This document shows positions 10,674-30,923 of a DNA stretch of 32,000 bases, piece by piece. This stretch comes from Geotalea uraniireducens Rf4 (lineage in GTDB: Bacteria; Desulfobacterota; Desulfuromonadia; Geobacterales; Geobacteraceae), in the NCBI RefSeq assembly GCF_000016745.1, contig NC_009483.1, positions 180,001 through 212,000 on the forward strand, given 5' to 3'. The position numbers and the translations under genes are program-made. Within the stretch, counting starts at the first letter, position 1, and each line of letters opens with the position of its first letter. The notes beneath the pieces were generated by a model. That model searched no databases. It was not told the DNA's origin and was given only the letters and a program-made list of their open reading frames with translations.

Positions 10674-10729
10674 AGGGAAAGGGAACGTTTTCTCGTATAA
10701 TCCGAAAGCTGAACGAAAGAAAGTCCCTT

Positions 10730-10756
10730 CATATACGCTTTGAACTTATTTGTCAA
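10730..10756 (-). promoter_or_regulatory. Weak candidate promoter for the methyltransferase
   Basis: The minus strand reads TTGACA (10756-10751), then a 15-nt spacer (short), then TATATG (10735-10730). Confidence 0.25.
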
Positions 10757-10761
10757 CGGGG

Positions 10762-11088
10762 TTAAGGGCAGGATTTGCCGTTCTTTATCATGAGTGCTTT
10801 CAGAAGCGCCGGCTGCTCCTGGCGGGAAGGGGTCTGATTGGTGATGACATCCCTCACCGACAGGAGGTCCTTTTTTAATGATTCGCCATTCCTGACCAGA
10901 AGACGGGTCTGCGCGTCACTTCTAACATAGGGGGATAGAAGATTTATGGCATCGGTAATTTTCTGACTTACAACTACACGTTCCTTGAAATTGTCAAACT
11001 GACCTCTTTTTAATCTATCGTTGATAGCAGAGAACTCACTCGTAAAATAAGTCAAAACGGTTGCATATACGTTGTTGTCATCAGCCAT
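10762..11088 (-). CDS. Hypothetical protein (108 aa), no recognisable family
   Basis: Clean ORF with a purine-rich stretch (GAGAAGAGA) upstream. It follows the upstream small ORF after 3 nt. It appears more AT-rich than its neighbours. Confidence 0.5.
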   Translation of the reverse strand: MADDNNVYATVLTYFTSEFSAINDRLKRGQFDNFKERVVVSQKITDAINLLSPYVRSDAQTRLLVRNGESLKKDLLSVRDVITNQTPSRQEQPALLKALMIKNGKSCP

Positions 11089-11091
11089 TAG

Positions 11092-11232
11092 TTATCTCTT
11101 CTCGTCCTTCCCCAGCCGGGCTTTAGTGTTAATGACGTTTTCCAGAGGTACAACCTTATCAGTTACCCGTTCTCCACCCGGATTAATCTTCTTTTCGGCC
11201 TTATCGACTTTTTCTTTAAAATTATTCAGCAT
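11092..11232 (-). CDS. Hypothetical small Lys/Glu-rich protein (46 aa), or a 3' remnant of a gene cut by the IS
   Basis: MLNNFKEKVDKAEKK... begins at the ATG at 11232. The longer ORF-track version (to 11340) runs into the IS left end and is not credible. No SD is present. Confidence 0.3.
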   Translation of the reverse strand: MLNNFKEKVDKAEKKINPGGERVTDKVVPLENVINTKARLGKDEKR

Positions 11233-11287
11233 TGTCCGGTTTGGTCTTTGCAAGGTTCTTTGAGAATGTAAAAAAGTTGTAAAATCA

Positions 11288-12729
11288 GCGTTATACCGCA
11301 TTATTTGCTTGACTTTGAGTAAAAAAACGGTGGTCCGCACTCGTAACTATCCAATATTACAGGAGTTACGATATGCGACCGTTCAAACGACTGAAACAAA
11401 GACGAAAATCACGCGCTTTCAAATTGCTTCTTACCCCGATTTTTGAGAGATTCAAGTCAGATAATGAACTTGAATCCAGGGGGTATCGCCCGTTGCAAAT
11501 GACTTTCGATGATCAGCTAAAAGCCCTGATCTTTTATCACTTGGAAGAGTTCTCTTCCGGGAGCGAACTTCTCCAGGCGCTGGATCAGGATGACTTCGCC
11601 AAGGAATGTGTTGCTCCCCCCAAGGGAATCAAAAAGAGCTCTTTCTTTGAGGCAATCAACAACCGTGGTCTTGAACAGCTTTCCGAGGTATTCGGGCATC
11701 TTGTCAAGCAAGCAGGCAGAGTGCTTCCCGATGAATATGCTCACCTTGGCAATCTGGTATCCATAGACGGTTCTTTGATAGATGCTGTTCTATCTATGGA
11801 ATGGGCAGATTACCGAAGCGGCTCTAAGAAGGCCAAGGCCCATATCGGCTTCGATATCAACCGTGGTATTCCAAGGAAGATATTCCTGACCGACGGTAAA
11901 GAGGGTGAGCGCCCCTTTGTTGATAAGATCATCGACAAAGGCGAAACCGGTGTCATGGATCGTGGGTATCAGTCTCATAATCACTTTGACCAGTGGCAGG
12001 CCGCCGAGAAGTTTTTTGTCTGCCGTATCAGGGAGAATACACACAAAACCGTCATCAGAGAGAATGCCGTAAATCCTGACAGTATTGTCTTCTATGACCA
12101 GATAGTACTTCTCGGCACCAAAGGTATAAACCAGACTGAGAAAGAGCTGCGCCTTGTTGGTTACCGTATTGACGGCAAGGACTACTGGGTAGCAACCAAC
12201 AGATACGACCTGACGGCTGAAGAAGTGGCCCAGGTTTATAAACTGCGCTGGAACATAGAGACCTTCTTCGGTTGGTGGAAACGCCACCTAAAGGTGTATC
12301 ACCTGATTGCCAGAAGCGAATATGGTCTCATGGTTCAAATACTTGGTGGTCTCATCACCTATCTGCTGCTAGCCATCTATTGCCGTGAGCAGCACCAGGA
12401 GCCAGTCAGCATTAGCAGGGTACGAGAATTACGCAATCAGATTGCAAATGAAGCAGCAGCCGAACAGCAGAGCCGTCGCACAAGAATACAAGGTAACTCA
12501 AACAAAATTAGACAGTTGAAACGTAAGAAACGTCGTGCAAAAACCTAACCGGAAGTTACTGAAAATTATTACGAAAGACCGGTTGCCATTGCGAAAGCCC
12601 GGCCTCGGAATAAGGAAAGGACAAAAACCGCGTTAGAAGCGTTGCCGGCGTTGTCGGAAGCAAAACGGAAAACGTGAGAAGCGTGCAGGCTGATGATCGA
12701 AAGCGGATTGCATAATGGTGGATTAACGC
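11288..12729 (+). mobile_element. IS4-family insertion sequence (about 1.44 kb); ends approximate
   Basis: A single DDE transposase is flanked by imperfect terminal inverted repeats. The left repeat is GCGTTATACCGCATTATTTGC (11288-11308). The right repeat is GCATAATGGTGGATTAACGC (12710-12729), whose reverse complement is GCGTTAATCCACCATTATGC. About 17 positions match, with small indels. I could not identify a clean target-site duplication. Confidence 0.6.
11373..12548 (+). CDS. IS4-family DDE transposase
   Basis: D (SIDGS), D (VMDRGY) and the Y-x2-R-x3-E-x6-K signature (YKLRWNIETFFGWWK). CAGGAG lies 7 nt upstream of the ATG. Confidence 0.9.
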   Translation: MRPFKRLKQRRKSRAFKLLLTPIFERFKSDNELESRGYRPLQMTFDDQLKALIFYHLEEFSSGSELLQALDQDDFAKECVAPPKGIKKSSFFEAINNRGLEQLSEVFGHLVKQAGRVLPDEYAHLGNLVSIDGSLIDAVLSMEWADYRSGSKKAKAHIGFDINRGIPRKIFLTDGKEGERPFVDKIIDKGETGVMDRGYQSHNHFDQWQAAEKFFVCRIRENTHKTVIRENAVNPDSIVFYDQIVLLGTKGINQTEKELRLVGYRIDGKDYWVATNRYDLTAEEVAQVYKLRWNIETFFGWWKRHLKVYHLIARSEYGLMVQILGGLITYLLLAIYCREQHQEPVSISRVRELRNQIANEAAAEQQSRRTRIQGNSNKIRQLKRKKRRAKT

Positions 12730-18319: not shown

Positions 18320-18392
18320 GGTCGGTGGTCGGCGGTCGGCGGTCGGCGGTAAAAGATGCGTTCCGGCCATCGACTACCGACCACCGCCCGCC
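18320..18392. repeat. Heptad tandem array (GGTCGGY)x4 with a partial inverted copy; fills the convergent junction
   Basis: GGTCGGT then GGTCGGC x3 (18320-18347), facing ACCGACCACCGCCCGCC (18376-18392). The perfect 10-bp complementary core is CGGTGGTCGG/CCGACCACCG. The element lies between the surA-like stop (18317) and the cbpA stop (18394). Confidence 0.85.
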
Positions 18393-19442: not shown

Positions 19443-20858
19443 ATGAAAAAAGCGATTGTCGTCGGTGGGGGTATTTCCGGTCTTGCCAGCGCCTATCTTC
19501 TCCGGGAAAAGGCAAAAAATTCCGGCATGGAGCTGGAAATAACCATTGTTGAAAAAGAGGATCGGACCGGTGGCAAGATCAGGAGCATAAAGGAGGACGG
19601 CTACCTGTGCGAGTGGGGACCAAACGGCTTTCTTGACAGCAAGCCGCAGACCCTTGATCTCTGCCGGGAGCTGAAGGTCGATTCCCAACTGCTCCGCAGC
19701 AACGACAACGCCCGCAAGCGGTTCATCTATTCCGGCGGAGTCCTGAACCGGCTGCCGGAGAACGGCCCCTCCTTTCTCAAGAGCCGGCTGATCTCCTGGC
19801 CTGGCAAGTTGCGTCTGGCGCTGGAACCGACGCCGTTCATCGCCAAAGCTCCAGAGGGGGTGGACGAGACCCTGGCCGCATTCGGCCGTCGCCGCCTCGG
19901 TGACGAAGCCTTGCGCAAGCTTATTGCGCCGATGGTCTCCGGGATATTTGCCGGTGACCCTGAGACCATGTCGCTAGTATCATGCTTTCCGCGCATTGCC
20001 GAGCTGGAGCGGGAATACGGCGGCCTGGTCAAGGCGATGGTCAAGCTGGCGAAAAAGAAAAAGCAGGAGATAGCCGAAGGCAAACAAGTGGCGAGCGCCG
20101 CCGGTCCCGGAGGTGTCCTGACCTCGTTCCGTGACGGGATACAGACCCTGACCGACATCCTCAATGAACGGCTTGGCAAAGACATGTTGGTCATCGGCGC
20201 TGAGGTCACGGGGGTAAGCCGGGGGAATTCCACCCCCTATCGGGTACAGACCGGGGGCAGGGAACTCGATGCCGACATCGTCGTGCTGGCCACACCGGCC
20301 TATGCCACGGCGCAGGCGTTGGAGGGGATTGACGGAGGGATGAGCGCCACGCTCAATCAGATTCCCTATGCCACCATGACGGTGGTCTGTTTCGGCTACG
20401 AGCAGGAAAAGGTCGCCCATGACCTGAACGGCTTCGGCTACCTGATCCCCAAGGCGGAGGGGATGAACATCCTCGGCACCCTCTGGGATTCCAGCATCTT
20501 TGAAAACCGGGCGCCGGAAGGCAAGGTGCTCTTGCGCAGCATGATGGGAGGGGCCTGCTTCCCCGAATACATCAGGCTCTCCGACGCGGAGGTGGTGCAA
20601 AAGGTGCGGGACAACCTGAAGACCATCATGGGGATAAAGGAGGCACCGGAATTCGTCCGCATCTTCCGTCACGAAAAGGCCATTCCCCAGTACACAGTGG
20701 GGCACGGTAGAAGGCTCGCCGCCCTCGAAGAACAGGCAAAAAGTCACCCCGGCCTCTTTCTTAGCGGCAACTCCTACCGGGGGATCGGCCTCAACGACTG
20801 CGTCGCCGCGGCCAACAGGACGGCGGACGAGGTGGTCGCGTTTCTGCAGAGCCGTTGA
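19443..20858 (+). CDS. hemY: Protoporphyrinogen/coproporphyrinogen oxidase, FAD-dependent (HemY family)
   Basis: N-terminal dinucleotide fold VVGGGISGLASAY. Length is 471 aa with family-typical C-terminal GNSYRGIGLNDC. AGGAG lies upstream. Confidence 0.85.
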   Translation: MKKAIVVGGGISGLASAYLLREKAKNSGMELEITIVEKEDRTGGKIRSIKEDGYLCEWGPNGFLDSKPQTLDLCRELKVDSQLLRSNDNARKRFIYSGGVLNRLPENGPSFLKSRLISWPGKLRLALEPTPFIAKAPEGVDETLAAFGRRRLGDEALRKLIAPMVSGIFAGDPETMSLVSCFPRIAELEREYGGLVKAMVKLAKKKKQEIAEGKQVASAAGPGGVLTSFRDGIQTLTDILNERLGKDMLVIGAEVTGVSRGNSTPYRVQTGGRELDADIVVLATPAYATAQALEGIDGGMSATLNQIPYATMTVVCFGYEQEKVAHDLNGFGYLIPKAEGMNILGTLWDSSIFENRAPEGKVLLRSMMGGACFPEYIRLSDAEVVQKVRDNLKTIMGIKEAPEFVRIFRHEKAIPQYTVGHGRRLAALEEQAKSHPGLFLSGNSYRGIGLNDCVAAANRTADEVVAFLQSR

Positions 20859-20895
20859 CAAGAAAAGGCAACCTTCTTCCGGTTGCCTTTTCTTG
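20859..20895. terminator. Bidirectional terminator hairpin between hemY and flxA
   Basis: Perfect 15-bp stem CAAGAAAAGGCAACC (20859-20873) pairs with GGTTGCCTTTTCTTG (20881-20895). The loop is 7 nt, and the 3' arm is U-rich on both strands. Confidence 0.8.
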
Positions 20896-20915
20896 TTGAT
20901 GCTATGATCGAAGCC

Positions 20916-21758
20916 TTAGAACTCCTGCGGCATAGCCTTCACCTGCTTGGCGGTGAAGACCGGCCCGTCCTTGCAGACATAGGTATTCCCCACGTTGCAT
21001 CTGCCGCATTTGCCCAGGCCGCATTTCATCCTGTTCTCCAGGGTGGTGTAGATGGCGTCATCGGTAAAGCCGAGCCGCTCCAGGACCGGCAGGGTGAACT
21101 TGATCATCACCGGCGGTCCGCAGACAAGGGCGATGGTGTTTTGCGCGCTTGGCGTCGCCTCTTCCAGGATGGTGGGGACAAAGCCGACCTTGCCGTCCCA
21201 GTCGGGACCGTTCCCCCCCGGATCCACCGTCTTCACCAGGTTCACGTCCCCCCGCTCCTGCCACTCCTCAAGCTCCCGCTTGTAGACCAGATCCGCCTCC
21301 GTCCTGGCACCGTAGACGATGGTGATATCCTTGAACCTGTCCCTCAGGTCGAGGCAGTTCCAGATCACCGTTCGCAGCGGGGGGAGGGCGATGCCGCCGG
21401 CGACGAAGACGAGGCTTTTCCCCTCGAACTCCTCGATGGGGAACGAGTTGCCGTAAGGGCCGCGCACCCCCATCGTGTCTCCCACCTCCAGTTGCCGCAG
21501 CGACTCCGTGACCCGTCCCGTGGCCCTGAAACAGCACTCGATGTAACCCTTGCGGGTCGGCGAGGAAGCGATGCAGAAGGTGGATTCGCCGGCGCCGAAG
21601 GCCGAGTACTCGGCAAACTGGCCGGCGCGGAAGGAGAAGTTCTCCCGCACCTGCTCATCCTGGAAGACCAGGCGCAGCGTACGCACGTCCGGGGTTTCGT
21701 CGACGATTTCTTCGATGGTGGCGAGGTGGGGGAGGTAGATGTTTTTGTTATCGCACAT
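20916..21758 (-). CDS. flxA: FAD/NAD(P)H-binding [2Fe-2S] oxidoreductase subunit (FlxA; AsrB/HydG-gamma-like)
   Basis: Ferredoxin-reductase-type fold (RAGQF, GPYG, VFVAGGIALPP) and a C-terminal Cys cluster CGLGKCGRCNV...C. It is the last gene of the hdr-flx operon. Confidence 0.75.
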   Translation of the reverse strand: MCDNKNIYLPHLATIEEIVDETPDVRTLRLVFQDEQVRENFSFRAGQFAEYSAFGAGESTFCIASSPTRKGYIECCFRATGRVTESLRQLEVGDTMGVRGPYGNSFPIEEFEGKSLVFVAGGIALPPLRTVIWNCLDLRDRFKDITIVYGARTEADLVYKRELEEWQERGDVNLVKTVDPGGNGPDWDGKVGFVPTILEEATPSAQNTIALVCGPPVMIKFTLPVLERLGFTDDAIYTTLENRMKCGLGKCGRCNVGNTYVCKDGPVFTAKQVKAMPQEF

Positions 21759-21768
21759 TTTGGAACCC

Positions 21769-21834
21769 GTTCGATGTTCGATGTTCGATGTTCAAGGTTT
21801 TCTTACGTCGAACCTCGAACGTCGAACGTCGAAC
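21769..21834. repeat. Tandem-heptad hairpin, flxB/flxA gap
   Basis: GTTCGAT x3 plus GTTCAAG (21769-21796), a 10-nt loop, then GTCGAAC, CTCGAAC and GTCGAAC x2 (21807-21834). The 6-bp blocks are separated by single mismatches. Confidence 0.9.
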
Positions 21835-21838
21835 CGCT

Positions 21839-22843
21839 TTATTTGCTGTTGATTTCGTCCAATACCGCCTTGATATCGATCCCGACCGGACAGGCACGAA
21901 TGCACCTGCCGCAGCCGGTGCAGAGCGTCTGGCCGAACTTGTCGCCGTAATACTTGAACTTGTGCATGATCCTGTTTCTGTAACGCTTGTTCTGCATATC
22001 CCGCGGGTTGTGCCCCGAGGCGTGGTTGGTGAACTTGGCAAAGCCGCAGGCGTCCCAGCTCTTCCGCCTGGCCCCCTTGGCCTCGGTCCCCTCGTCCACT
22101 ATGTCGAAGCAGTGGCAGGCCGGGCAGAGGAAGGCGCAGGCGCCGCAACCGGCGCACCGATCGGCGATCTCCGTCCAGAGCGGGTTCTCGAAGTTGTTGT
22201 CGAGCCAGCTCTTTATCTTTTCCAGGTCGAGCGATTCTCCCGCCGGTTCGGCCGGCGGCAGCGGCTTTGCCGAACCGGCGTCGCTGAAGAACTGCGCCCG
22301 TTTCTCCAGAAGCTCCTTCCCCTTGTCGGTGACGGCTTGGGCTGCGTAACCGCCACCCTCAAGCGGGGTGAGGAACAGGTCCGAGCCCCTGGTATCCGCC
22401 GGGGAAAGACCGACAGCGGTGCAGAAACAGGCGTCATCGGCAGTCGTGCAGGCAAGCCCGATAATGGTCGTTTTTCTGCGCCTCTCCAGGTAAAACTCGT
22501 CGTTGTAATCCCAGGAGAAGACCGCATCGAGGATCGACGGAGCTGCCGCATCGCACGGCCGGGCGCAGAGCAGCACGGTTTCCGGGAAGGAGGCCGGGTC
22601 CACGTCGTTTACCCTCACACCGCCCTTGTCCTTTTCAAAGGTGAGGATGGTCTCGCAGAGGGGGAAGAACGTTTCCTTGGCGGACCTGCGCGGAAGGGCG
22701 CCGAGCGCCAGCTCGTCGCCACTTTTAAGCGGCTCATAGAGGGCCATGGTGCCCGCCTGCTTCGGGGCGACTACTCTTGCCCCTTCTTTCAGCAGGGTAT
22801 CGACGAGGAGACGGAGGTTCTGTTCGGTTATTGTTTTCGGCAT
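21839..22843 (-). CDS. flxB: Iron-sulfur subunit (FlxB; AsrA/HydB-beta-like)
   Basis: Cys clusters CAGCGACAFLCPACHC and CTGCGRCIRACP. The ATG at 22843 (MPKTITEQ) is preferred, because the ORF-track GTG at 22876 lies inside a hairpin arm. Confidence 0.7.
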   Translation of the reverse strand: MPKTITEQNLRLLVDTLLKEGARVVAPKQAGTMALYEPLKSGDELALGALPRRSAKETFFPLCETILTFEKDKGGVRVNDVDPASFPETVLLCARPCDAAAPSILDAVFSWDYNDEFYLERRRKTTIIGLACTTADDACFCTAVGLSPADTRGSDLFLTPLEGGGYAAQAVTDKGKELLEKRAQFFSDAGSAKPLPPAEPAGESLDLEKIKSWLDNNFENPLWTEIADRCAGCGACAFLCPACHCFDIVDEGTEAKGARRKSWDACGFAKFTNHASGHNPRDMQNKRYRNRIMHKFKYYGDKFGQTLCTGCGRCIRACPVGIDIKAVLDEINSK

Positions 22844-22864
22844 ATGATCTCGCTTAGATTTTTG

Positions 22865-23001
22865 CCACAGAGCCACGGAGACTCAGAGAAAAATCAAAAA
22901 CATGTTTTCGGTTTTGTTTGATCCGACTTGATCCGATTTTTCCGCGTACCATTGTTTTTCAGCTTTTCTCTGTGAATCTCTGTGTCTCCGTGCCTCTGTG
23001 G
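22865..23001. repeat. Tandem-octamer inverted repeat with a ~70-nt spacer, flxC/flxB gap
   Basis: The left arm is CCACAGAG-CCACGGAG-ACTCAGAG-AAAAA (22865-22893). The right arm is TTTTCTCTGTGAATCTCTGTGTCTCCGTGCCTCTGTGG (22964-23001). About 24 of 26 positions are complementary, and the right arm has one extra unit. The spacer holds a tandem 10-mer TTGATCCGAY x2 (22918-22937). Confidence 0.9.
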
Positions 23002-23012
23002 CAGAATTGCTG

Positions 23013-23960
23013 TTATTTTATGAACGACTGATCGTCGTCCTCTCTGTACTCCGCCAAAGGCCCCTTCTCCTTCGGCTCAAGCCCCGCCTCATGACCGTAG
23101 AGCTCTTTCAGCTCCTTTGCCATCTTCCGGTTGAGGAGGTTCAGCGGAATGTCCATCGGGCAGGCTCGCTCGCATTCGGCGCACCCCGCGCAACGGCCGG
23201 AGAGGTGCATGGCCCGGACGATGTGCCACGCCATGTTTCCCGCCGGACGCGGGCTTGTCTCAACCGCCTGGGGGCGGTTACGGTCGCACATGCACTGTTC
23301 GCAGTAGCAGAAGGGGCAGATGCTCCGGCAGGCCAGACAGCGCACGCAGCGGGAGAAATGTTCCTTCCAGAACGACCAGCGCTCCCGGGGTGTCATCGCT
23401 TCGAGCCGTGCCAGCTCCTCAGCTTCCACCGGGGACAATTCCGGCAGGGAGGGGAGACTGCCGGCGACAGAATCGGCTCCTTTCGGCTCGCGTACCGTGC
23501 ACTCCCGGCATTTCTTCGCGATGTTGGCGGTGGTCAGCGGCTCGCCGGTTGCGGCGCCGCTCCCCTTCACCCCGGCGCAGGCAACGGCGATGATGTGGAC
23601 GTCCTCCCGCTTCAGCTGGGATTCACCCATCAGTCCCGCCAGGGCACGCATATCGCACCCCTTGGCGACGATCGCCACCTTTCCCGTCTTCCGGATATCC
23701 TTCTTCGCCTTGGTCAGGTAGAGGGCCAGGTTGTTGACGCAGGCCGGGGAGAAGATCAGGTCATTCGCCCGGGCAGGGTCGGTGATGATGGCAGGCATGG
23801 CCGTGCCTTTCCTCTTGCCCGCCTGGTAGCCGATCACCGCGGCTACGGTACCGTCGGTCAGGAGCCTGGCGGCCTCCGCCCGGATCGCCTCGGTAACGGC
23901 AGCGTAGTAGCCGGTGTCCACCAGCGGGGTTGTGTCGAGTTGTTGTGCTGTGTTGGTCAT
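23013..23960 (-). CDS. flxC: Iron-sulfur subunit (FlxC-like)
   Basis: Cys-rich motifs CVRCLACRSICPFCYCEQCMC and CAGCAECERACP. AGGAAA lies upstream of the ATG. The gene sits between flxD and flxB. Confidence 0.65.
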   Translation of the reverse strand: MTNTAQQLDTTPLVDTGYYAAVTEAIRAEAARLLTDGTVAAVIGYQAGKRKGTAMPAIITDPARANDLIFSPACVNNLALYLTKAKKDIRKTGKVAIVAKGCDMRALAGLMGESQLKREDVHIIAVACAGVKGSGAATGEPLTTANIAKKCRECTVREPKGADSVAGSLPSLPELSPVEAEELARLEAMTPRERWSFWKEHFSRCVRCLACRSICPFCYCEQCMCDRNRPQAVETSPRPAGNMAWHIVRAMHLSGRCAGCAECERACPMDIPLNLLNRKMAKELKELYGHEAGLEPKEKGPLAEYREDDDQSFIK

Positions 23961-23978
23961 GATTTCCTAAACCGTTCT

Positions 23979-24067
23979 CACCACTAAGGCACTAAGGACA
24001 CGAAGAAAACCAAAAAAACGGGTTTTAGACTTTAGTCTTTCTTTGTGCTCTTAGTGTCTTAGTGGTG
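23979..24067. repeat. Tandem-octamer hairpin, flxD/flxC gap
   Basis: CACCACTAAGGCACTAAGGACACGAAGAAA (23979-24008) faces TTTCTTTGTGCTCTTAGTGTCTTAGTGGTG (24038-24067). 26 of 30 positions are complementary, and all four mismatches are transitions. The arms contain CACTAAGG x2. Confidence 0.9.
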
Positions 24068-24077
24068 AATGTAGTCG

Positions 24078-24563
24078 TTAAATGTTGTTGTACGCTTCTT
24101 TAAGCTCCGGGGTATCAATCTTCCCCGACCAGCACTCCTCAATCTCCAGCTCCTTGAATTCAAGCATCGGCCCCATGGCCCGGACACGCTCGGTGAGCTC
24201 GGTCACCACCTCGACCCACTTCCCCCCTTCGGCTGCGGAGACCCAGGAGAACTGGAGGCGCGAGAGATCTACGCCGACGAATTCCAGGAGCTTCCTGAAG
24301 GCGGCGAAACGACGGCGGGCGTGGAAGTTGCCGGCCATGTAGTGGCAGTCCCCCGGATGGCAGCCGGAGACGAGCACCCCGTCGGCCCCTTTCTGGAAGG
24401 CCTTGAGGATGAAGACCGGATCGATGCGGCCGGTGCAGGGGAACTTGACGACCCTCACGTTTGAAGGGTACTGCATTCGGCTGGTGCCGGCCAGGTCCGC
24501 ACCGGCGTAGGTGCACCAGGTGCAGACGAAGGCTACTATCTTTGGTTCGAAGTCGTGTTTCAT
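24078..24563 (-). CDS. flxD: MvhD-like [2Fe-2S] protein (FlxD)
   Basis: FVCTWCTYAGADLAG...KFPCTGRIDP...SGCHPGDCHY is the signature of the methyl-viologen-reducing hydrogenase delta subunit family. AGGA lies 5 nt upstream. Confidence 0.85.
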   Translation of the reverse strand: MKHDFEPKIVAFVCTWCTYAGADLAGTSRMQYPSNVRVVKFPCTGRIDPVFILKAFQKGADGVLVSGCHPGDCHYMAGNFHARRRFAAFRKLLEFVGVDLSRLQFSWVSAAEGGKWVEVVTELTERVRAMGPMLEFKELEIEECWSGKIDTPELKEAYNNI

Positions 24564-24572
24564 AACAATCCT

Positions 24573-24692
24573 GTTCGAGGTTCGAGGTTCGAGGTTCGAG
24601 GTTCGAGGTTCGAGGTTCGAGGTTCGAGGTTCGAGGTTCGAGGTTCGAGGTTCGGTTCTTGTTTTTCAACATCGAACCTCGAACCTCGAACC
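24573..24692. repeat. (GTTCGAG)x11 microsatellite facing (TCGAACC)x3, hdrA/flxD gap
   Basis: Eleven perfect heptads (24573-24649), a 22-nt spacer, then three perfect complementary heptads (24672-24692). Confidence 0.95.
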
Positions 24693-24696
24693 GGTT

Positions 24697-26694
24697 TTAT
24701 AACGCTTCTATCATCGCCACGATCTGTTCATCGGTATAGCCGTCCAGCTCCACCGATTTGGACGGGCAGGTGGCCTGGCAGGTGCCGCAGCCGCCGCAGA
24801 CGCCGGGGTTGACGTAGGCCACGACTCTTATCAGGTTGCCGTTTCTGTCCCTGATCTCCTTTTCCTCTACCGCGCCGTAGGGGCAGACCTTCTTGCAGTA
24901 GAAGCAGGCGACGCAATTTTTCTCGTTCACCTTGGCGACGATCGGCTCTCTTTCGAGCTCGTCCCTGGAGAAGAGGGTCATCACCTTGGCTGCGGCGGCA
25001 CTCGCCTGGGAGACGGTGTCGGGGATATCTTTCGGCCCCTGGCAGGCGCCGGCGAGATAAATTCCGGCTGTGGCGCATTCAACGGGGCGGAGTTTGGCGT
25101 GGGCCTCGGAGTAGAAGTTGTACTTGTCGTAGGAGATCCCCAGCTTCTGGGCCAGGGTGTCGGCGCCTTGCCTTGGCTGGACCGCGGTGGCCAGGACTAC
25201 CAGATCCGCCTCGATCTCCACCTGGACCCCGACCGAGATGTCGCTCCCCATGACCACGACCTTGTCCCCCTTCTGGTAGAGGCGGGAGACCATGCCGCGG
25301 ATGTAGCCCGCTTCTTCTTCCTCCACGGCCCGCCGCCAGAACTCGTCGTATCCCTTGCCCGGTGTTCTCGCGTCCATGAAGAAGACATAGGCCTGGCCGT
25401 CGTGCACCTTGTGCTTGTAGAGCATGGTGTGCTTGGCGGTGTACATGCAGCAGATCTTGGAGCAGTAGGAGATCCCCTTTTCCCTGGCGCGGGAGCCGAC
25501 GCATTGGATGAAGACCACCTGTTTCGGTTCCTTGCCGTCTGAGGGGCGGAGGATCTTGCCGCCGGTGGGGCCGGATGCCGAGGCGAGCCGCTCGAAGGTC
25601 ATGCCGTCGATGACGTCGGGGATCTTGCCGTGGCCGAATTCGCCATACCCCTTGATCGGGGAGCCCTTGGGCTTTTCGGTGATGTCGTAGAGCTCGAAGC
25701 CGGTGGCGACGACGATGGCCCCGACCTTTTCCACGATGAGTTCATCTTCCTGGGTGTAGTCAACGGCTCCGGGGCCGCAGACCTTCTGGCAGACCCCGCA
25801 CTTGCCGGTCTTGAACCAGGTGCAGTTCTCCCGGTCGATGACCGGGGTGTTGGGGACGGCCTGGGGGAAGGGGACGTAGATGGCGGGGCGCATTCCCATA
25901 TTCCGGTCAAAGGCGTTGGGGATCTTCTTCTGCGGGCACTTGGCCATGCAGATCCCGCAGCCGGTGCACTTGGCCATGTCGACGCTGCGGGCCTTCTTCT
26001 TGATGGTGATCTGGAAGTTGCCGATGTAGCCGTCGACGTTCTCGATCTCGCTGTAGGTATGAAGGGTGATGTTCGGGTGGTTGGCCACGTCGACCATCTT
26101 CGGGGTCATGATGCACTGGGAGCAGTCCAGGGTCGGGAAGGTCTCGGAGAGCTGGGCCATGTGGCCGCCGATGGAGGGCTCCCGCTCGACCAGCACCACC
26201 TGGTGGCCGGCGTCGGCGATGTCCAGGGCTGCCTGGATGCCGGCGATGCCGCCGCCGATGACGAGCGACCTTTTGGTGATCGGGACGGTGATGGGTGCAA
26301 GTTTCTTGTCCTTCTTCACCCGCTCGACCAGCATGGCGACGATCTCGCTCGCCTTGGCCGTGGCTTCTTCCCGGTCCTCGTGGACCCAGGAGCAGTGCTC
26401 GCGGATGTTGGCCATCTCGCACAAAAAGGGGTTCAGACCCGCGCTCTGGGCAGCTTTCCTGAAGGTCTTCTCGTGCATCCGCGGGGAGCAGGCGGCAACG
26501 ACGATGCCGTCGAGATTGTGCTCGGCAACGGCCTTTTTGAGCAGGTTTTGCCCCGGGTCGGAGCACATGTACTTGTAGTCGGTGGCAAAAGCGACGCCGG
26601 AGAGCGCTCCCGCTTCCCGGGCTACCCGTTCCACGTCAACGGTTCTGGATATGTTTTCACCACAGTGGCAGACGAATACGCCGATTCTGGACAT
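24697..26694 (-). CDS. hdrA: Heterodisulfide reductase subunit A (flavoprotein, multiple [4Fe-4S])
   Basis: N-terminal VFVCHCGENI cluster, FAD fold VIGGGIAGIQAALDIADAG, and ferredoxin motifs CTGCGICMAKCP, CGVCQKVCGP, CVACFYCKKVCP and CGGCGTCQATCP. AGGAA lies upstream. Confidence 0.92.
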   Translation of the reverse strand: MSRIGVFVCHCGENISRTVDVERVAREAGALSGVAFATDYKYMCSDPGQNLLKKAVAEHNLDGIVVAACSPRMHEKTFRKAAQSAGLNPFLCEMANIREHCSWVHEDREEATAKASEIVAMLVERVKKDKKLAPITVPITKRSLVIGGGIAGIQAALDIADAGHQVVLVEREPSIGGHMAQLSETFPTLDCSQCIMTPKMVDVANHPNITLHTYSEIENVDGYIGNFQITIKKKARSVDMAKCTGCGICMAKCPQKKIPNAFDRNMGMRPAIYVPFPQAVPNTPVIDRENCTWFKTGKCGVCQKVCGPGAVDYTQEDELIVEKVGAIVVATGFELYDITEKPKGSPIKGYGEFGHGKIPDVIDGMTFERLASASGPTGGKILRPSDGKEPKQVVFIQCVGSRAREKGISYCSKICCMYTAKHTMLYKHKVHDGQAYVFFMDARTPGKGYDEFWRRAVEEEEAGYIRGMVSRLYQKGDKVVVMGSDISVGVQVEIEADLVVLATAVQPRQGADTLAQKLGISYDKYNFYSEAHAKLRPVECATAGIYLAGACQGPKDIPDTVSQASAAAAKVMTLFSRDELEREPIVAKVNEKNCVACFYCKKVCPYGAVEEKEIRDRNGNLIRVVAYVNPGVCGGCGTCQATCPSKSVELDGYTDEQIVAMIEAL

Positions 26695-26707
26695 GCATCA
26701 ATTCCTT

Positions 26708-26848
26708 GTAGGGGCGGGGTCTTCCCGCCCTTATTTATCGTTGTTCCGGCAGGGCGGGGGTCCGTCCTTTTTTCGCATTGTTCCGGCAGGGCGGGGGTCC
26801 GTCCTTTTTTCGCATTGTTCCAACAGGGCGGGGAAACCCCGCCCCTAC
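26708..26848. repeat. 37-bp direct repeat x2.5 bracketed by a 12-nt GC-rich inverted repeat, hdrB/hdrA gap
   Basis: GTAGGGGCGGGG (26708-26719) is complementary to CCCCGCCCCTAC (26837-26848), which overlaps the hdrB stop. TTGTTCCGGCAGGGCGGGGGTCCGTCCTTTTTTCGCA occurs identically at 26741-26777 and 26778-26814, followed by a partial copy at 26815-26833. Local GC hairpins sit at both ends. Confidence 0.95.
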
Positions 26849-27732
26849 AGTAGGTTCTTTTCTTTTAATAACGGCAAGGGACTGACCATCATGCTGTCGA
26901 AGCCGAGTTTGGCTGCTGGAACCCCGGCGGCCAGGGCCAGGAGCTGGGTCATGTAGAAGACCGGCATGTTGTAACGGGTGCCGGTGGCCTCTTCGATCTC
27001 CTTCTGGCGGATGTCCAGGTTGCCGTGGCAAAGCGGACAGGCGACCATGAGGCAGTCGGCGCCGGCCGCTTTGGCCGAGGCGAGGATGTCGCCCGAAAGC
27101 TTCAATACCACGCCGGGGCGCGACAGGGTGAAGTTGGCGCCGCAGCACTCGAGCCGGTGGCTCCAGGCGACGGTCTCGGCTCCGGTGGCGCCGATGACCC
27201 GCTCCATGATGGTCGGGGCTTCGGTGCAGTCCAGTTCCGGCACTTCTGGGGGCCGGGTGAGGAGGCAGCCGTAGTAGCAGGCTACCTTGAGGCCGGAGAG
27301 GGGCTTTTGCACCGCTTCCTGGAGTTGCTCCAGGCCGTAGTCTTTGGCCAGGATCTCCAGCAGGTGCTTGACCTTCTTCTCCGGTACGCTGCCGGCAATG
27401 GCGTGCTCCACCTGCTTGCGCTTCTCCGGGTTGTCGGCCAGTCTGTGCTGGGTGGTCTTGAGTCTGGAGAAGCAGGCGGCGCAGGCGACTGCCAGGTCCC
27501 CCTTGACTTCGTCGGCCAGGGAGAGGTTCTTGGCGCACAGGGAGAGCGACAACAGTTCGTCCACGTTGTGGGCCGGGGTGGCGCCGCAGCAGAGCCAGTC
27601 CGGCACTTCCTTGAGACCGATCTTCAGCGCCTTGAACAGACCGCGGGTGGATATGTCGTACTCCTTGCCCGAGGCGTGCAGTGAGCAGCCGGGATAGTAG
27701 GAGTAGGTGAGTTTTGAGTTTGTAGAGTTCAT
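26845..27732 (-). CDS. hdrB: Heterodisulfide reductase subunit B (two CCG domains)
   Basis: YYPGCSLH, DWLCCGATPAH and RLECCGANF motifs. The ATG at 27732 (MNSTNSKLTYSYYPGC) is preferred over 27846, which would add a 38-aa NS(I/K) repeat. No SD is visible for either start. Confidence 0.85.
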   Translation of the reverse strand: MNSTNSKLTYSYYPGCSLHASGKEYDISTRGLFKALKIGLKEVPDWLCCGATPAHNVDELLSLSLCAKNLSLADEVKGDLAVACAACFSRLKTTQHRLADNPEKRKQVEHAIAGSVPEKKVKHLLEILAKDYGLEQLQEAVQKPLSGLKVACYYGCLLTRPPEVPELDCTEAPTIMERVIGATGAETVAWSHRLECCGANFTLSRPGVVLKLSGDILASAKAAGADCLMVACPLCHGNLDIRQKEIEEATGTRYNMPVFYMTQLLALAAGVPAAKLGFDSMMVSPLPLLKEKNLL

Positions 27733-27873
27733 AGAGTTCTTTGAGTTCTTTGAGTTTATTGAGTTCTTTGAGTTTATTGAGTTTATTGAGTTCTTTGAGT
27801 TTATTGAGTTTATTGAGTTTATTGAGTTACATGGGTTCAACACCATAACTCATCGAACTCATAAAACTCATAA
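27709..27873. repeat. 9-bp microsatellite (GAGTTYWTT) x13 facing three inverted 9-mers, hdrC/hdrB junction
   Basis: Thirteen 9-mers span 27716-27832: GAGTTTATT x6, GAGTTCTTT x4 and three variants. A 7-nt partial unit sits at 27709. AACTCATCG and AACTCATAA x2 lie at 27847-27873. Confidence 0.95.
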
Positions 27874-28446
27874 AACGGTTTTCCGCATCTCTTCGATCCG
27901 GTTGAAGATATTTTCAATCTCGGTGATGTTCTTGTTTTTGGAGTGGAACATTTTAAGCTTCCCCCGGGAGAGGAGCTTGGGGCCGAGCAGCAGGTCCTTC
28001 AGGAACTGCCCGCTCTTGACGTTGAACACGGCGCCGAGCCGCATCTCGTACTGGCGGCCGTAGGTTTTTATGTTCTCGATGAAGAGCCGGTTGGCGAGCT
28101 GGACATAGCTCTCCTTGGAGGGGCCGTTGGCGTCCCAGGAGAGTTTGCGCAGCGCATCCATGATCGCTGCCAGGTCCACCTTGTTGGGGCAGCGGGTGGA
28201 GCAGGTCTCGCACGAGGCGCAGTACCAGATGGATCGACCGGCCAGAATCCGCTCCCACTGGCCGAGCTGCAACAGGCGCATGATCCGGTTGGGCGGGTGT
28301 TCCATGAAGCTTCGCATGGGGCAGCCGGCCGTGCACTTGCCGCACTGGAAACAGCGCCGTACCGAACTGCCGGAGAGGGACTCCACCTTGCGAACGAAGT
28401 CGAGGTTCATCGTTTCGGTGGAGAGTGTCATCTTGGTGTGCTTCAT
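27868..28446 (-). CDS. hdrC: Heterodisulfide reductase subunit C (2x[4Fe-4S])
   Basis: CFQCGKCTAGCP and CASCETCSTRCP. AAGGA lies 7 nt upstream of the ATG. Confidence 0.88.
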   Translation of the reverse strand: MKHTKMTLSTETMNLDFVRKVESLSGSSVRRCFQCGKCTAGCPMRSFMEHPPNRIMRLLQLGQWERILAGRSIWYCASCETCSTRCPNKVDLAAIMDALRKLSWDANGPSKESYVQLANRLFIENIKTYGRQYEMRLGAVFNVKSGQFLKDLLLGPKLLSRGKLKMFHSKNKNITEIENIFNRIEEMRKTVL

Positions 28447-28787
28447 TGAAATTCCTTTCCCTCTTCATTGACGGGATGACAAAAAGCCCATGACGATAGC
28501 GACTGCTGATGAAAAGGAGAGGGCTTTTTATTTACACTAAATTATTGCTGTGATATTGCCTGATATATAAGAGTAATTAATCTACGCTTTTAATAATACT
28601 AAAAATTGATAACATATGACGACATATTTTGTCAACATATACGTTTAATGGCGGCATCCGCACAGCGCGTCAGTTGAAGCATACCGGGTCAGGGCCGCCA
28701 CTAAAAACAGCGGCGGATTTTGCCTGCTCCCTCTCGGATTGACGGCTCAATATGCCCTATATCTCATAAAGTGGCGCCGTTTCAGCC

Positions 28788-30923
28788 TTAATCCTCCAGC
28801 TGTTCGGCCAGCAGTTCCACGGTGTGCCGTACTCTGATGTCGGCGCCGTCCTGGTCCATGCCACCCCTGATCTGCATGACGCAACCGGGGCAGTCCATGG
28901 CTACGACCGGCGCACCGGTCTCCTTGATGTTCGTCAGTTTGCGCTGCAGGATCGGGGCTGATATCTCCGGCAGCTTGATTGAGTAGGAACCGCCCATGCC
29001 GCAGCAGGTATCGCACTCGAACATTTCGGTCAGCTCGTATCCCACCTTGTTCAACAGTTCCCTCGGTTCTTCGGACACATGCAGCGTCCTCTTCAGGTGG
29101 CAGGAGTCGTGATAGGTTACCTTGCCGAGTTTTCGGCCTTCTTTCAGGGTCAGGCGCCCCTCATCCACCAGCTTTTTGACCAGGGAGGAAAAGTCGACCG
29201 TTTTCCCGGCCAGTTCCTTTGCCCGGGGCATCCATTCGGTCTGCCCGAGGCTTTCAAAGGTGCTGATGAATTCATGGGCTAACGCTACCGTGCAGGTCGG
29301 ACAGGCTGAAATGACATACTGCACATCCTCGCTCAGGAGGGCCTTGATGTTGTCGATGGCATTCTTTTCAGCTACCTCATAGGCCCCGCTGTAGCGGGCG
29401 GGAGCACCGCAGCAGGTCTGCTCCTCCGGGAATACCACCTCGATACCGGCCTTGTTGAGAATCTTGACCAGTGCTTCTCCCATCTCCGGATAGGCAAAGT
29501 CGATCAGGCAGCCGGCATAAAAGGCGGCCTTTTCTTTCAGTTTAGGCTGCTTGATCTTTTTGAACCGGTCCCTGAACGGCTCCGCGGCAATGGCGGGCAG
29601 GCTGCGGCCGTCGGTGAGATCTGCCAGGAACAGCGGCAGGTGGCGGAGGAACTTGCCCGAAGTAAGCGGCTTGCCGGCTATCGAGGCCGCCCGCAGCATG
29701 CCGTGGAAAAGCCTGCGGTTGTTAACCACGCGGTAGATCGCTTTTTGCAGCAGTGGCAGCCCCTCTTTTTGCACCAGGCGCCGCCTGATCTCCATAATCA
29801 GCTCGGGAATATCGATTTTGCCCGGGCAGATCTCCTTGCAGTTGCCGCACTGGATGCAGAGACCCTGAATCTCCTCGGATTTCTTCAGTTCATCGAACCA
29901 GGCGGTGAGAATGGTGCCGATGCCGCCGGTATAGATCTTGCCGAAAACGTGACCGCCGACGAGGCGGAAGACCGGACAAACGTTCAGGCATGAGCCGCAT
30001 CTGATGCACTGCATAGCCTGTTTGAATTTGGGGTCGTTCGCCATCTCGGTCCTGCGGTTGTCCATGAGGATGATGTGCAGGTCTTTCATGGAGCCGTCGG
30101 TGTTGGGTGCCGGACCGGTGATGATCGAGACATAGCTGGTCAGGAGCTGGGCCGTGGCGCTCCGCGGCAGTGCCGTTAACACAGGGACGACATCGGCAAA
30201 TTTTTCAACGAACTTTTCGATGCCGACCAGGGCAATATGGATCTTCGGCAGGGTGGTGACCATCCTGGCGTTACCCTCGTTGGTAACGAGGACGATGCTC
30301 CCGGTTTCGGCAACCGCGATATTCCCGCCGGTGATGCCCATGTCTGCTGCCAGGAACTTGGAGCGCAGTTCTTTGCGGGCCACCTCGACCAGTCTCGGGA
30401 TGTCGGTGGTCAGGCGCTCATTGACCTCCTTGCTGAAGAGATCGGAAACCTCCTCCTTGGTCATATGGATGGCGGGCATGACCATGTGCGATGGTGTCTG
30501 ACCGGCCAACTGGATGATCCATTCTCCCAGGTCCGTTTCCCCGACCGCGATGCCTGCCTTTTCCAGATAACTGTTGAGATGAATCTCTTCCGTGGCCATG
30601 GACTTGGATTTGACCACGGTTTTAACGTTGTTTTCTTTGGCAACCTTGAGGATGTATTCCTTGACCTTTTCTGGGTCGTTGGTTTGGAAAACCTTGGCGC
30701 CAAGGGCTTCGGCGTTCCGGGTGAAAGCGGCCGCCATCAGGTCCAGATGTGATGCGGCATGGGACTTCCGCTCGGCGATGGTGGTCCGCAGCACCTCGAA
30801 GTCGATCCCCTCATAGGCCTTGGCGCGGTTGACCTTGTAGGCCTCGGAAAATTTTCCGAGCGCTCCCGTGAGGTTGGCATTGTTGACAGCCCTGTCGATG
30901 GATTCCTTGAAATCACTTTTCAT
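28788..30923 (-). CDS. Fused LutB-LutA-type lactate-utilisation Fe-S oxidoreductase (LUD domain + 2x[4Fe-4S] + two CCG domains)
   Basis: The N-terminus is LUD/DUF162-like. Ferredoxin motifs are CIRCGSCLNVCP and CIQCGNCKEICP. The C-terminal CCG motifs are EQTCCGAPARY and CDTCCGMGGSY. At 711 aa it is about the summed length of separate LutB and LutA. The start overlaps the lutC stop (ATGA). Confidence 0.8.
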   Translation of the reverse strand: MKSDFKESIDRAVNNANLTGALGKFSEAYKVNRAKAYEGIDFEVLRTTIAERKSHAASHLDLMAAAFTRNAEALGAKVFQTNDPEKVKEYILKVAKENNVKTVVKSKSMATEEIHLNSYLEKAGIAVGETDLGEWIIQLAGQTPSHMVMPAIHMTKEEVSDLFSKEVNERLTTDIPRLVEVARKELRSKFLAADMGITGGNIAVAETGSIVLVTNEGNARMVTTLPKIHIALVGIEKFVEKFADVVPVLTALPRSATAQLLTSYVSIITGPAPNTDGSMKDLHIILMDNRRTEMANDPKFKQAMQCIRCGSCLNVCPVFRLVGGHVFGKIYTGGIGTILTAWFDELKKSEEIQGLCIQCGNCKEICPGKIDIPELIMEIRRRLVQKEGLPLLQKAIYRVVNNRRLFHGMLRAASIAGKPLTSGKFLRHLPLFLADLTDGRSLPAIAAEPFRDRFKKIKQPKLKEKAAFYAGCLIDFAYPEMGEALVKILNKAGIEVVFPEEQTCCGAPARYSGAYEVAEKNAIDNIKALLSEDVQYVISACPTCTVALAHEFISTFESLGQTEWMPRAKELAGKTVDFSSLVKKLVDEGRLTLKEGRKLGKVTYHDSCHLKRTLHVSEEPRELLNKVGYELTEMFECDTCCGMGGSYSIKLPEISAPILQRKLTNIKETGAPVVAMDCPGCVMQIRGGMDQDGADIRVRHTVELLAEQLED

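Follow-up and report, generated by a model that had tools for sequence, protein, structure and literature searches.

What fills the gaps between the genes of the hdrC-hdrB-hdrA-flxD-flxC-flxB-flxA operon of Geotalea uraniireducens Rf4, and does it serve this operon? The seven genes occupy 20916..28446 on the minus strand of a 32,000-nucleotide stretch (positions 180,001 to 212,000 of contig NC_009483.1), which we call the window. An earlier note on this DNA described a different hairpin in each of the six gaps and proposed that the hairpins act as intercistronic RNA structures or as slippage-prone rheostats of subunit stoichiometry. Our analysis indicates that the gap elements belong, as new members, to known, if poorly understood, kinds of dispersed repeats and that the operon is an unusually crowded landing site. 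The gaps probably hold members of several hairpin-forming intergenic repeat families typical of Geobacter/Geotalea, which are tolerated, self-propagating or generated by slippage, and are not hdr-flx devices. Genes and gap elements are listed here in window coordinates. Fold energies are for the transcribed strand, and z compares them with 200 dinucleotide shuffles per gap.

20916-21758, minus strand: flxA-like gene with FAD/NAD binding and DHODB Fe-S domain (Pfam)
21759..21838, minus strand: flxB>flxA gap, heptad-armed hairpin (Tandem Repeats Finder, TRF; fold -34.4 kcal/mol, z -4.6; antisense -39.8, z -6.6)
21839-22843, minus strand: flxB-like gene, Fer4_22 (Pfam)
22844..23012, minus strand: flxC>flxB gap, octamer-armed palindromic element of CACAGAG/CACGGAG units (inverted repeat I2; fold -62.8 kcal/mol, z -6.8)
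23013-23960, minus strand: flxC-like gene (Pfam)
23961..24077, minus strand: flxD>flxC gap, octamer-armed palindromic element of CACTAAG units (inverted repeat I1; fold -44.4 kcal/mol, z -6.5)
24078-24563, minus strand: flxD/MvhD (FlpD) gene (Pfam)
24564..24696, minus strand: hdrA>flxD gap, hairpin with one expanded arm (TRF; inverted repeats I3-I15; fold -56.1 kcal/mol, z -7.7)
24697-26694, minus strand: hdrA gene (Pfam)
26695..26849, minus strand: hdrB>hdrA gap, cluster of four palindromes of the repetitive extragenic palindromic (REP) type (I12; TRF; direct reading; fold -59.4 kcal/mol, z -3.6)
26845-27732, minus strand: hdrB-like gene with two CCG domains (Pfam)
27733..27867, minus strand: hdrC>hdrB gap, weak hairpin (TRF; fold -20.4 kcal/mol, z -2.3)
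27868-28446, minus strand: hdrC-like gene (Pfam)

The gene labels given in the earlier note match Pfam, and the start codons are backed by tblastn, which gave full-length alignments with orthologues. From these coordinates the gaps measure 80, 169, 117, 133, 150 and 135 nt (flxB>flxA up to hdrC>hdrB), and the contrast with the 4-nt overlaps of lutC/lutBA and HEAT/HD-GYP in the same window is real. Inverted repeats of short tandem units are present in all six gaps, as had been described, with units of 7-9 nt. TRF called tandem arrays in five of the six gaps. The inverted-repeat search returned arms of 25-38 nt, 82-96 % complementary, in five gaps, and a wider search added the sixth. The elements fall into several families and are not copies of a single consensus, a point on which the note was also right.

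Two gaps carry GTTCGAN heptad arms. In flxB>flxA, TRF reported GTTCGAT x3.6 (21769-21793) against TCGAACC x4.0 (TCGAACN, 21808-21835). The two arms differ systematically, GTTCGAC versus GTTCGAT, which indicates that units were duplicated inside each arm. In hdrA>flxD, GTTCGAG x11.7 (24573-24654, 100 % matches) faces AACCTCG x3.6 (24668-24692). Such unequal copy numbers had been pointed out before and are genuine, here as well as in the 9-mer array of hdrC>hdrB (x12.8 against x3.3). The perfection of the 11.7-copy array points to recent slippage, and this arm has probably grown to about 12 perfect copies during replication.

Perfect and unequal arms are also what one would expect of a rheostat or phase-variation switch, in which the copy number tunes the downstream subunits. 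Heptamer repeats serve as graded expression switches in other bacteria, with an example in Haemophilus (PMC12721329, cited from an excerpt), and short-read assemblies break at the arrays: contigs end at the GTTCGAG array of hdrA>flxD and at the other long array. The locus offers a direct comparison of lengths, because it appears to exist twice. The HdrA protein sequence is identical to two Rf4 accessions, ABQ24365 and ABQ27737, so the operon is probably present in two copies. Logan contig L081 (1-4338) matches the window with 99.92 % identity from flxD to the flxA stop codon and then diverges completely; it is probably the second Rf4 copy, spanning only flxD to flxA. Over 3685 nt the two independent contigs are 99.9 % identical, and the flxD>flxC, flxC>flxB and flxB>flxA gaps show no indels and have identical lengths. 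Moreover, most arms consist of only 3-4 units, and the arrays lie between cistrons and not between promoter elements, and they stay outside reading frames except in the first hdrB codons. The rheostat proposed in the earlier note thus found no backing in the three comparable gaps, and we regard it as highly improbable.

The flxC>flxB and flxD>flxC gaps probably hold two copies of one kind of element, built like a MITE (miniature inverted-repeat transposable element) whose terminal inverted repeats are three tandem CACNNAG octamers. The flxC>flxB arms (22860-22889/22977-23006, I2) are 30 nt long and 90 % complementary, and between them lie inner repeats at 22890-22936. TRF missed the CCACAGAG octamers of 22844-23012 because of their degeneracy and called nothing in this gap but a 10-mer within the loop; the octamers are visible as arms of 27-30 nt that are 90-93 % complementary. 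Their units match the class 2 consensus TCTCCGTS of G. metallireducens (Aklujkar et al. 2009, PMC2700814) and the [WCCTCTGTG]n family of G. bemidjiensis (Aklujkar et al. 2010, PMC2996986); both papers are cited throughout from excerpts of their text and tables. The flxD>flxC arms (23978-24015/24031-24068, I1) measure 38 nt with 82 % complementarity, and TRF found CACTAAGG x2.0 against TCTTAGTGC x2.9. This element aligns with 14 related elements of other Geobacterales loci. The 15 octamer-class elements align over both arms and share the ends TCACCAC...GTGGTGA(A/G), A-rich/T-rich inner borders and often an internal GGTTTAAACCC-AAAAAG-TTTTTTT motif. Of the features of a MITE, terminal inverted repeats are present, and internal sharing is limited to the short motif. 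Within an element, the two arms carry the same unit variant in register in 26 of 41 pairs, compared with 9.0 +/- 3.3 across elements (none of 2000 shuffles reached 26); complementarity is therefore kept while the unit sequence drifts.

The hdrB>hdrA gap had been read as a 37-bp direct repeat bracketed by a GC-rich inverted repeat. The 37-bp unit stands (x2.5, TRF), but it is part of what is really a run of four REP-type palindromes, apparently of the GTAG type. The palindrome at 26708-26731 reads GTAG-GGGCGGGGTCTTCCCGCCC, those at 26747-26768 and 26784-26805, within the 37-bp units, read GCAG-GGCGGGGGTCCGTCC, and an inverted copy occupies 26825-26849, its CTAC overlapping the stop codon of hdrB. 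The outer palindromes (26707-26731 and 26825-26849) form inverted repeat I12 with arms of 25 nt, 92 % complementary. By direct reading, GTAG stands at 26708 and, on the other strand, at 26849-26846, while GCAG precedes the two inner copies. Three of the four palindromes were also found by a terminator-type scan. GTAG-GGGCGGGG is the palindrome type of this cluster, which shows the features of GTAG-tagged REPs: GC-rich imperfect palindromes of 20-40 bp with a 6-13 bp stem and a GTAG/GYAG tag. Di Nocera et al. (2013, PMC3733652), who defined these REPs, named a GTAG-11 family in G. uraniireducens and noted that TAG stop codons are often provided by the ends of REPs, a situation also seen at hdrB. 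Here the tag is made with the gene's own cTG-TAG end, and the empty sites of L007 and L011 (L numbers denote the loci and contigs compared) have the same ctgtag. A REP-type element like this one lies at the same gap in L002, L003 and L006, and the type also occupies other gaps of L002, L003, L006 and L008. No RAYT (IS200-like tyrosine transposase) was found within the window. On the plus strand the two inner copies (26747-26805) are each followed by T6; such tandem terminator-like sites, antisense to the operon, would stop antisense transcription and not the operon's own.

The last gap, hdrC>hdrB, appears to consist of a 9-mer array with a weak inverted partner. TRF reported AACTCAAWR (TTGAGTTTA) x12.8 on the plus strand at 27714-27828 against AACTCATAA x3.3 at 27847-27876. 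The array reaches codons 2-7 of hdrB, and the stop codon of hdrC is covered by the short arm. Read in the hdrB frame, the array has no stop codon as far back as an ATG at 27846; a start there would lengthen the protein by about 38 residues of NSI/NSK repeats. More likely hdrB starts at the ATG at 27732, giving the N-terminus MNSTNSK-LTYSYYPGC, which is of orthologue-like length but built of repeat units; upstream of this ATG we saw no Shine-Dalgarno sequence. Seven related species have a 4-nt overlap of hdrC and hdrB. In the window the TGA that ends hdrC falls within a TTATGAGTT unit of the short arm, and the old overlapping hdrB ATG now begins an 11-codon mini-open reading frame.

The folding advantage over dinucleotide shuffles, which the earlier note had asked to be checked, held for five gaps (z -3.6 to -7.7) and was weak in hdrC>hdrB (z -2.3), where 6 of 200 shuffles folded equally well and the hairpin is marginal. 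In most gaps of the window the sense strand folds no better than the antisense strand, since A-C mismatches of the sense RNA turn into G-U pairs in the antisense. No gap holds a terminator-like site on the sense strand, in agreement with the observation that none of the hairpins is followed by a U-tract, and no minus-strand site was found in 20500-29000. The sole matches of the terminator scan within a gap are those on the antisense strand of the REP cluster of hdrB>hdrA. A reading as intrinsic terminators or attenuators is ruled out, as the transcribed strand of the gaps has no U-tract hairpin. A clustered regularly interspaced short palindromic repeat (CRISPR) array, already dismissed in the earlier note, is likewise ruled out because the units are contiguous without spacers. 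At the gathering threshold Rfam 15 returned only a truncated tRNA at 1-49 and nothing in the gaps. A permissive Rfam search gave sub-threshold matches of microRNA precursors to one long hairpin and one weak small-RNA match at the operon terminator hairpin.

That neither strand is favoured in folding would also suit a role at the level of DNA, in which the paired arrays bind nucleoid or architectural proteins such as IHF/HU and the RNA fold is a by-product. Aklujkar and co-authors proposed IHF/HU binding, first put forward for G. metallireducens, or regulatory RNAs for such sequences, without tests, and bacterial interspersed mosaic elements (BIMEs), which bind IHF and gyrase, offer a parallel. 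The arms are conserved while the spacing between them varies, and the co-directional or convergent placement resembles that of BIMEs. However, the units differ widely between elements (CACTAAG, CACGGAG, GTTCGAG, TCAGGAG, ATTTTGA and others). Each element conserves the complementarity of its arms and not a motif, which argues against one sequence-specific binding protein, and we think such a role very unlikely.

Hairpins start at a median of 3 nt 3' of the stop codon (interquartile range about 1-8), and their ends lie a median of 12 nt (interquartile range 7-20) short of the next start codon. The claim that the elements of the window end close to the next start codon or contain it proved correct: the main stem ends 8-19 nt before it in four gaps, the hdrA>flxD array reaches to about 11 nt, and the hdrC>hdrB array contains it. 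The flxD>flxC site is empty in L006 (TGA-AAAGGTTTTT-ATG) and filled in L007, where the same ribosome-binding stretch is kept downstream of the element; the elements therefore lie 3' of the stop codon and 5' of a native ribosome-binding site. An element carrying its own ribosome-binding site was rejected, as AAAGGTTTTT is found at the empty site too and is hence native. Comparison of filled and empty sites revealed no consistent target-site duplication.

Are such elements confined to the operon? A seventh one is present elsewhere in the window:

18320-18389: GGTCGGY x4.4 against its complement (TRF; inverted repeat I13; fold)

It is flanked by the convergent SurA-like peptidyl-prolyl isomerase (PPIase) and DnaJ-like genes (Pfam) and folds with z -4.3 and -3.7 on its two strands. 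The corresponding gene pair of G. metallireducens (Gmet_3549/3550) bears the annotated heptanucleotide element Gmet_H449, and Table S4 of PMC2700814 lists one element between SurA-like and DnaJ-related genes.

An exact scan found (GTTCGAG)3 in at least 120 metagenome contigs. Among the matches listed, none carries it inside an hdr-flx operon, about 25 contain a second, inverted array no more than 200 nt away with which it folds into a hairpin of the window type, and 31 of 120 loci hold at least three different array units of 6-10 nt within a few kb. A stop-free-frame test for intergenic position is uninformative here, as GTTCGAG lacks stop codons in all frames and the DNA is rich in G+C. The partnered hairpins are often nested with TAAGAGG/GAAGAGG heptads; soil contigs L176, L087, L093, L173, L200, L202 and L126 have hairpins with a GTTCGAG outer arm and a TAAGAGG/GAAGAGG inner arm. 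The PcrA helicase of L176 is 84-85 % identical to proteins of Acidobacteriota/Thermoanaerobaculia, so both unit and architecture also occur in another phylum.

An unrelated case is L164 (Ga0075425_100000390, 10383-12188), where three consecutive junctions of a cluster of pepF, arginase-family, methyltransferase, hemY-like and hemE genes are occupied. Its elements (GGTTCGA x9.3, an AACTCAA/TTGAGTT hairpin and a CACAGAGG/CCTCTGTG hairpin) belong to the same three unit classes as those of the window. Of the octamer class, the window holds two copies and related hdr-flx loci hold 13, with one more at L164.

A search with HdrA, using one genome per species, recovered 80 hdrCBA-flxDCBA loci from many phyla with synteny kept in nearly all. 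Outside Geobacterales the gaps are mostly -4 to about 20 nt. In the 13 Geobacterales loci gaps of 60-210 nt are common, and which gaps are long varies by species. Folds with z < -3 were obtained in 30 of 40 Geobacterales gaps of at least 50 nt versus 12 of 50 in other phyla; in those 30 structured gaps the sense strand folds better in 10, the antisense in 17, with 3 ties. In the comparison of orthologous loci suggested in the note, hairpins stand in many Geobacterales gaps; other phyla have short or overlapping junctions, and L014, L009 and L011, also Geobacterales, have few or no elements. The element class at a given gap changes from species to species, and the elements turn over quickly. 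Recurring classes are the octamers CACNNAG (CACAGAG, CACGGAG, CACTAAG, CACGAAG) and ATTTTGRA, the heptads NNCGAGG/GTTCGAG, TCAGGAG/TCAGAAT, GGTTRAG and GCRCAAG, and the GC-rich palindromes GGGCGGG...CCCGCCCCTACA.

Some loci show other insertions. In the hdrA>flxD gap of L004 (Trichlorobacter thiogenes, 9999-10789) the loop of an octamer-class element holds an IS200-family transposase gene (Y1_Tnp, E 4.7e-39) flanked by terminal hairpins of its own; it is an ordinary insertion and not a RAYT. In G. metallireducens the IS110-family ISGme8 stands beside a class-1 pair in the hdr operon. The two placements suggest that repeat elements attract insertion sequences. L004, L005, L009 and L014 have a hdrB-hdrA gap of 422-425 nt with a small open reading frame, which in L004 (7587-8000, 137 aa) encodes a response-regulator receiver (REC) domain protein (Pfam); these four loci carry fewer structured gap elements than other Geobacterales loci. 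In L044 (Bacteroidales UBA4417) the flxB>flxA gap is filled by a hairpin with GTTCAAR heptad arms, and L013, L041, L071, L074 and L076, all non-Geobacterales, have their own long palindromes in single gaps.

Since the same classes stand at many unrelated intergenic sites, the seventh element among them, and orthologous operons of other phyla have short or overlapping gaps, an operon-specific role is not supported; these are largely the results that the note itself had named as refuting it. Of the proposal of intercistronic RNA structure, the part that remains is that stem-loops are to be expected in the polycistronic mRNA. Nor are the elements new to such operons: the author of the note knew of no description for hdr/flx loci, but the supplementary tables of PMC2700814 and PMC2996986 list hdr operons of G. 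metallireducens and G. bemidjiensis that contain them.

Several points weigh against reading the gap elements as dispersed repeats without a role in the operon. One is their distribution. Across 14 Geobacterales sequences (the window and 13 loci, with 135 kb of flanks comprising 71 co-directional, 30 convergent and 24 divergent junctions) a structured element was found in 35 of 79 operon gaps versus 1 of 125 flanking junctions (Fisher p ~3e-16, which overstates independence because the 14 genomes are related), and in the window alone in six of six gaps versus one of about 17-20 other junctions. A strict search found no octamer-class hairpins in those flanks. Purely neutral random insertion does not predict such crowding. 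Furthermore, no mobilising enzyme was identified, and arms made of tandem units are not explained by any known transposition mechanism. The genome-wide copy numbers of the window's units in Rf4 are inferred from relatives and metagenomes, and a REP-like effect of the gap hairpins on mRNA is at most probable, by analogy.

The crowding invites the explanation that structured spacers are positively selected, giving each cistron its own 3' stem-loop for segmental processing or uncoupled translation, with the repeat families as interchangeable parts. It would account for the enrichment across 14 genomes with different classes at the same gap, which also shows that the pattern is not one inherited insertion; for hairpins that leave the ribosome-binding site free; for arm complementarity held across unit variants; and for gaps without sense-strand terminators. 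On the other hand, L014, L009 and L011 manage with few or no elements and other phyla with overlapping genes, the sense RNA is not favoured over the antisense, and the hairpin of hdrC>hdrB is only marginal. The unrelated cluster of L164 is just as densely occupied by the same classes, the kinship of the 14 genomes tempers the statistics, and clustering was already recorded by Aklujkar et al. (2010), in whose excerpted account 31 % of occupied intergenic regions hold several sequences. We therefore judge positively selected spacers to be unlikely.

A broader version, in which selection for structured spacers makes the operon gaps a hot spot across the whole Geobacterales lineage, filled time and again with hairpins from the repeat pool, we regard as a slim possibility; more generally, hairpins with tandem-unit arms, whose units are shared by Geobacterales and Acidobacteriota-like contigs, could arise by an undescribed generative mechanism and not by classical transposition. 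If selected, the possible benefit would be a separate 3' stem-loop for each cistron of a seven-subunit electron-bifurcating complex and a segmentally processed mRNA. The hot spot may reflect selection for structured spacers, a self-reinforcing landing pad or the level of expression. It is the only part that may be new. The hdr operon of G. metallireducens (Gmet_3425-3431), with four different families (PMC2700814, Table S4), fits the crowding seen in the window, and the excerpts of the Aklujkar papers used here contain no discussion of the saturation of every gap of one operon.

Between flxA and the convergent hemY-like gene lies a likely real terminator of the operon:

20858..20896: perfect 16-bp hairpin (inverted repeat I19)

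At the other end, the 341 nt 5' of hdrC (28447-28787) hold the sole promoter-like match on the operon strand (28622-28593) and no hairpin repeats, which fits the exclusion of such elements from promoter regions.

In E. coli, REP sequences stabilise the upstream mRNA, and down-regulation occurs when a REP lies within about 15 nt of the stop codon. As dispersed repeats, the hairpins of the hdr-flx gaps would be co-transcribed with the operon and probably block 3' exonucleases incidentally, protecting the upstream segment in the manner of enterobacterial REP/BIME elements. The stems of 20-30 bp may be cleaved by a double-strand RNase, and the hairpins might also act as spacers that uncouple translation.

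In annotation these gaps are best marked as dispersed repeats, namely a REP cluster, octamer-armed palindromic elements and heptad arrays, and not as novel riboregulators. Such families have been listed in Geobacter genome papers since 2009, and in the excerpts cited here their function and origin still have the form of proposals. The saturated, apparently duplicated operon offers a natural test bed for whether the hairpins stabilise, cleave or insulate mRNA segments, and also for how arms of tandem units originate and lengthen.

The hdrB>hdrA cluster corresponds to the REP/BIME systems, including REPINs (PMC3733652; Bertels and Rainey 2011, PMC3116915). Its GC-rich palindromes of 20-25 nt are tagged with GTAG/GCAG, form a cluster of direct and inverted copies, and lie against a stop codon whose TAG belongs to the tag. 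All elements of the window share with REPs the preference for sites downstream of coding regions, between co-directional or convergent genes. The other five elements are unlike REPs in that their arms are tandem units of 7-9 nt and not a single short palindrome.

MITEs within operons, such as the Correia elements of Neisseria and Chunjie, are a second parallel. Chunjie was inserted in a G. uraniireducens operon without disturbing it (Chen et al. 2008, as cited in an excerpt of Delihas 2011, PMC3184786). Like these MITEs, the window elements have terminal inverted repeats, lengths of 80-190 nt, positions between cistrons without breaking the operon and very stable predicted RNA folds, and copies of the octamer class share an internal motif. 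Unlike them, they have no recognised target-site duplication, and their internal sequence is mostly not conserved. Chunjie differs by its description, as far as excerpted: it is A+T-rich, 178-235 bp long, with 21-bp terminal repeats and 9-bp direct repeats.

Cyanobacterial short tandemly repeated repetitive (STRR) sequences are intergenic heptamer tandem repeats. On cyanobacterial heptamer arrays that form stem-loops we found nothing usable in the literature. The TAACTGA repeats of Beggiatoaceae (MacGregor 2015, PMC4679880) resemble the window elements in their mostly 7-nt intergenic tandem units, often in operons near start codons, and in the many unit families per genome, for which slippage is invoked as the origin. 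Mrazek et al. (2007), as summarised there, put forward the slippage hypothesis for long simple sequence repeats of 5-11 nt. The difference is one of build: TAACTGA arrays are nearly all direct, with one inverted case in 170 sets, whereas the window elements are built as hairpins.

The multicopy sequences of Geobacter are also among the closest relatives. In the excerpts cited, these were annotated in G. metallireducens and G. bemidjiensis and not in G. uraniireducens. In G. metallireducens, sites of 3-5 tandem repeats come in pairs, one on each strand and a variable distance apart, with the consensus GTTGCTYN (class 1), TCTCCGTS[Y] (class 2) and MTYCTGA (class 3). The 24, 21 and 8 pairs lie at unrelated genes, nearly all in 3'/5' or 3'/3' position (PMC2700814, Table S4), and 49 further elements consist of four heptanucleotide repeats. 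In G. bemidjiensis 12 % of intergenic regions contain multicopy sequences, the accumulation of several in one region being summed up by the authors as 'insertion is not random'; hundreds of heptanucleotide arrays are listed, the nonanucleotide [WCCTCTGTG]n forms R9001-R9068 (PMC2996986, Table S6), and [AACGTTG]n stands between hdrA and mvhD. The GTTCGAG and AACTCAAWR units have no match in Table S6. The G. metallireducens consensus sequences TCTCCGTS and MTYCTGA match units in the window and related loci. The correspondence covers the build of 3-5 tandem units of 7-9 nt facing their complement at a variable distance, the sequence (TCTCCGTS and CCTCTGTG correspond to CACGGAG/CACAGAG of the window) and the sites, which are 3'/5' co-directional or 3'/3' convergent and include hdr operons and the SurA/DnaJ junction. 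It extends to the two octamer-armed elements, whose arms at 22860-22889/22977-23006 and 23978-24015/24031-24068 pair about three 8-9 nt units of the TCTCCGTS/CCTCTGTG kind, just as in class 2 and [WCCTCTGTG]n.

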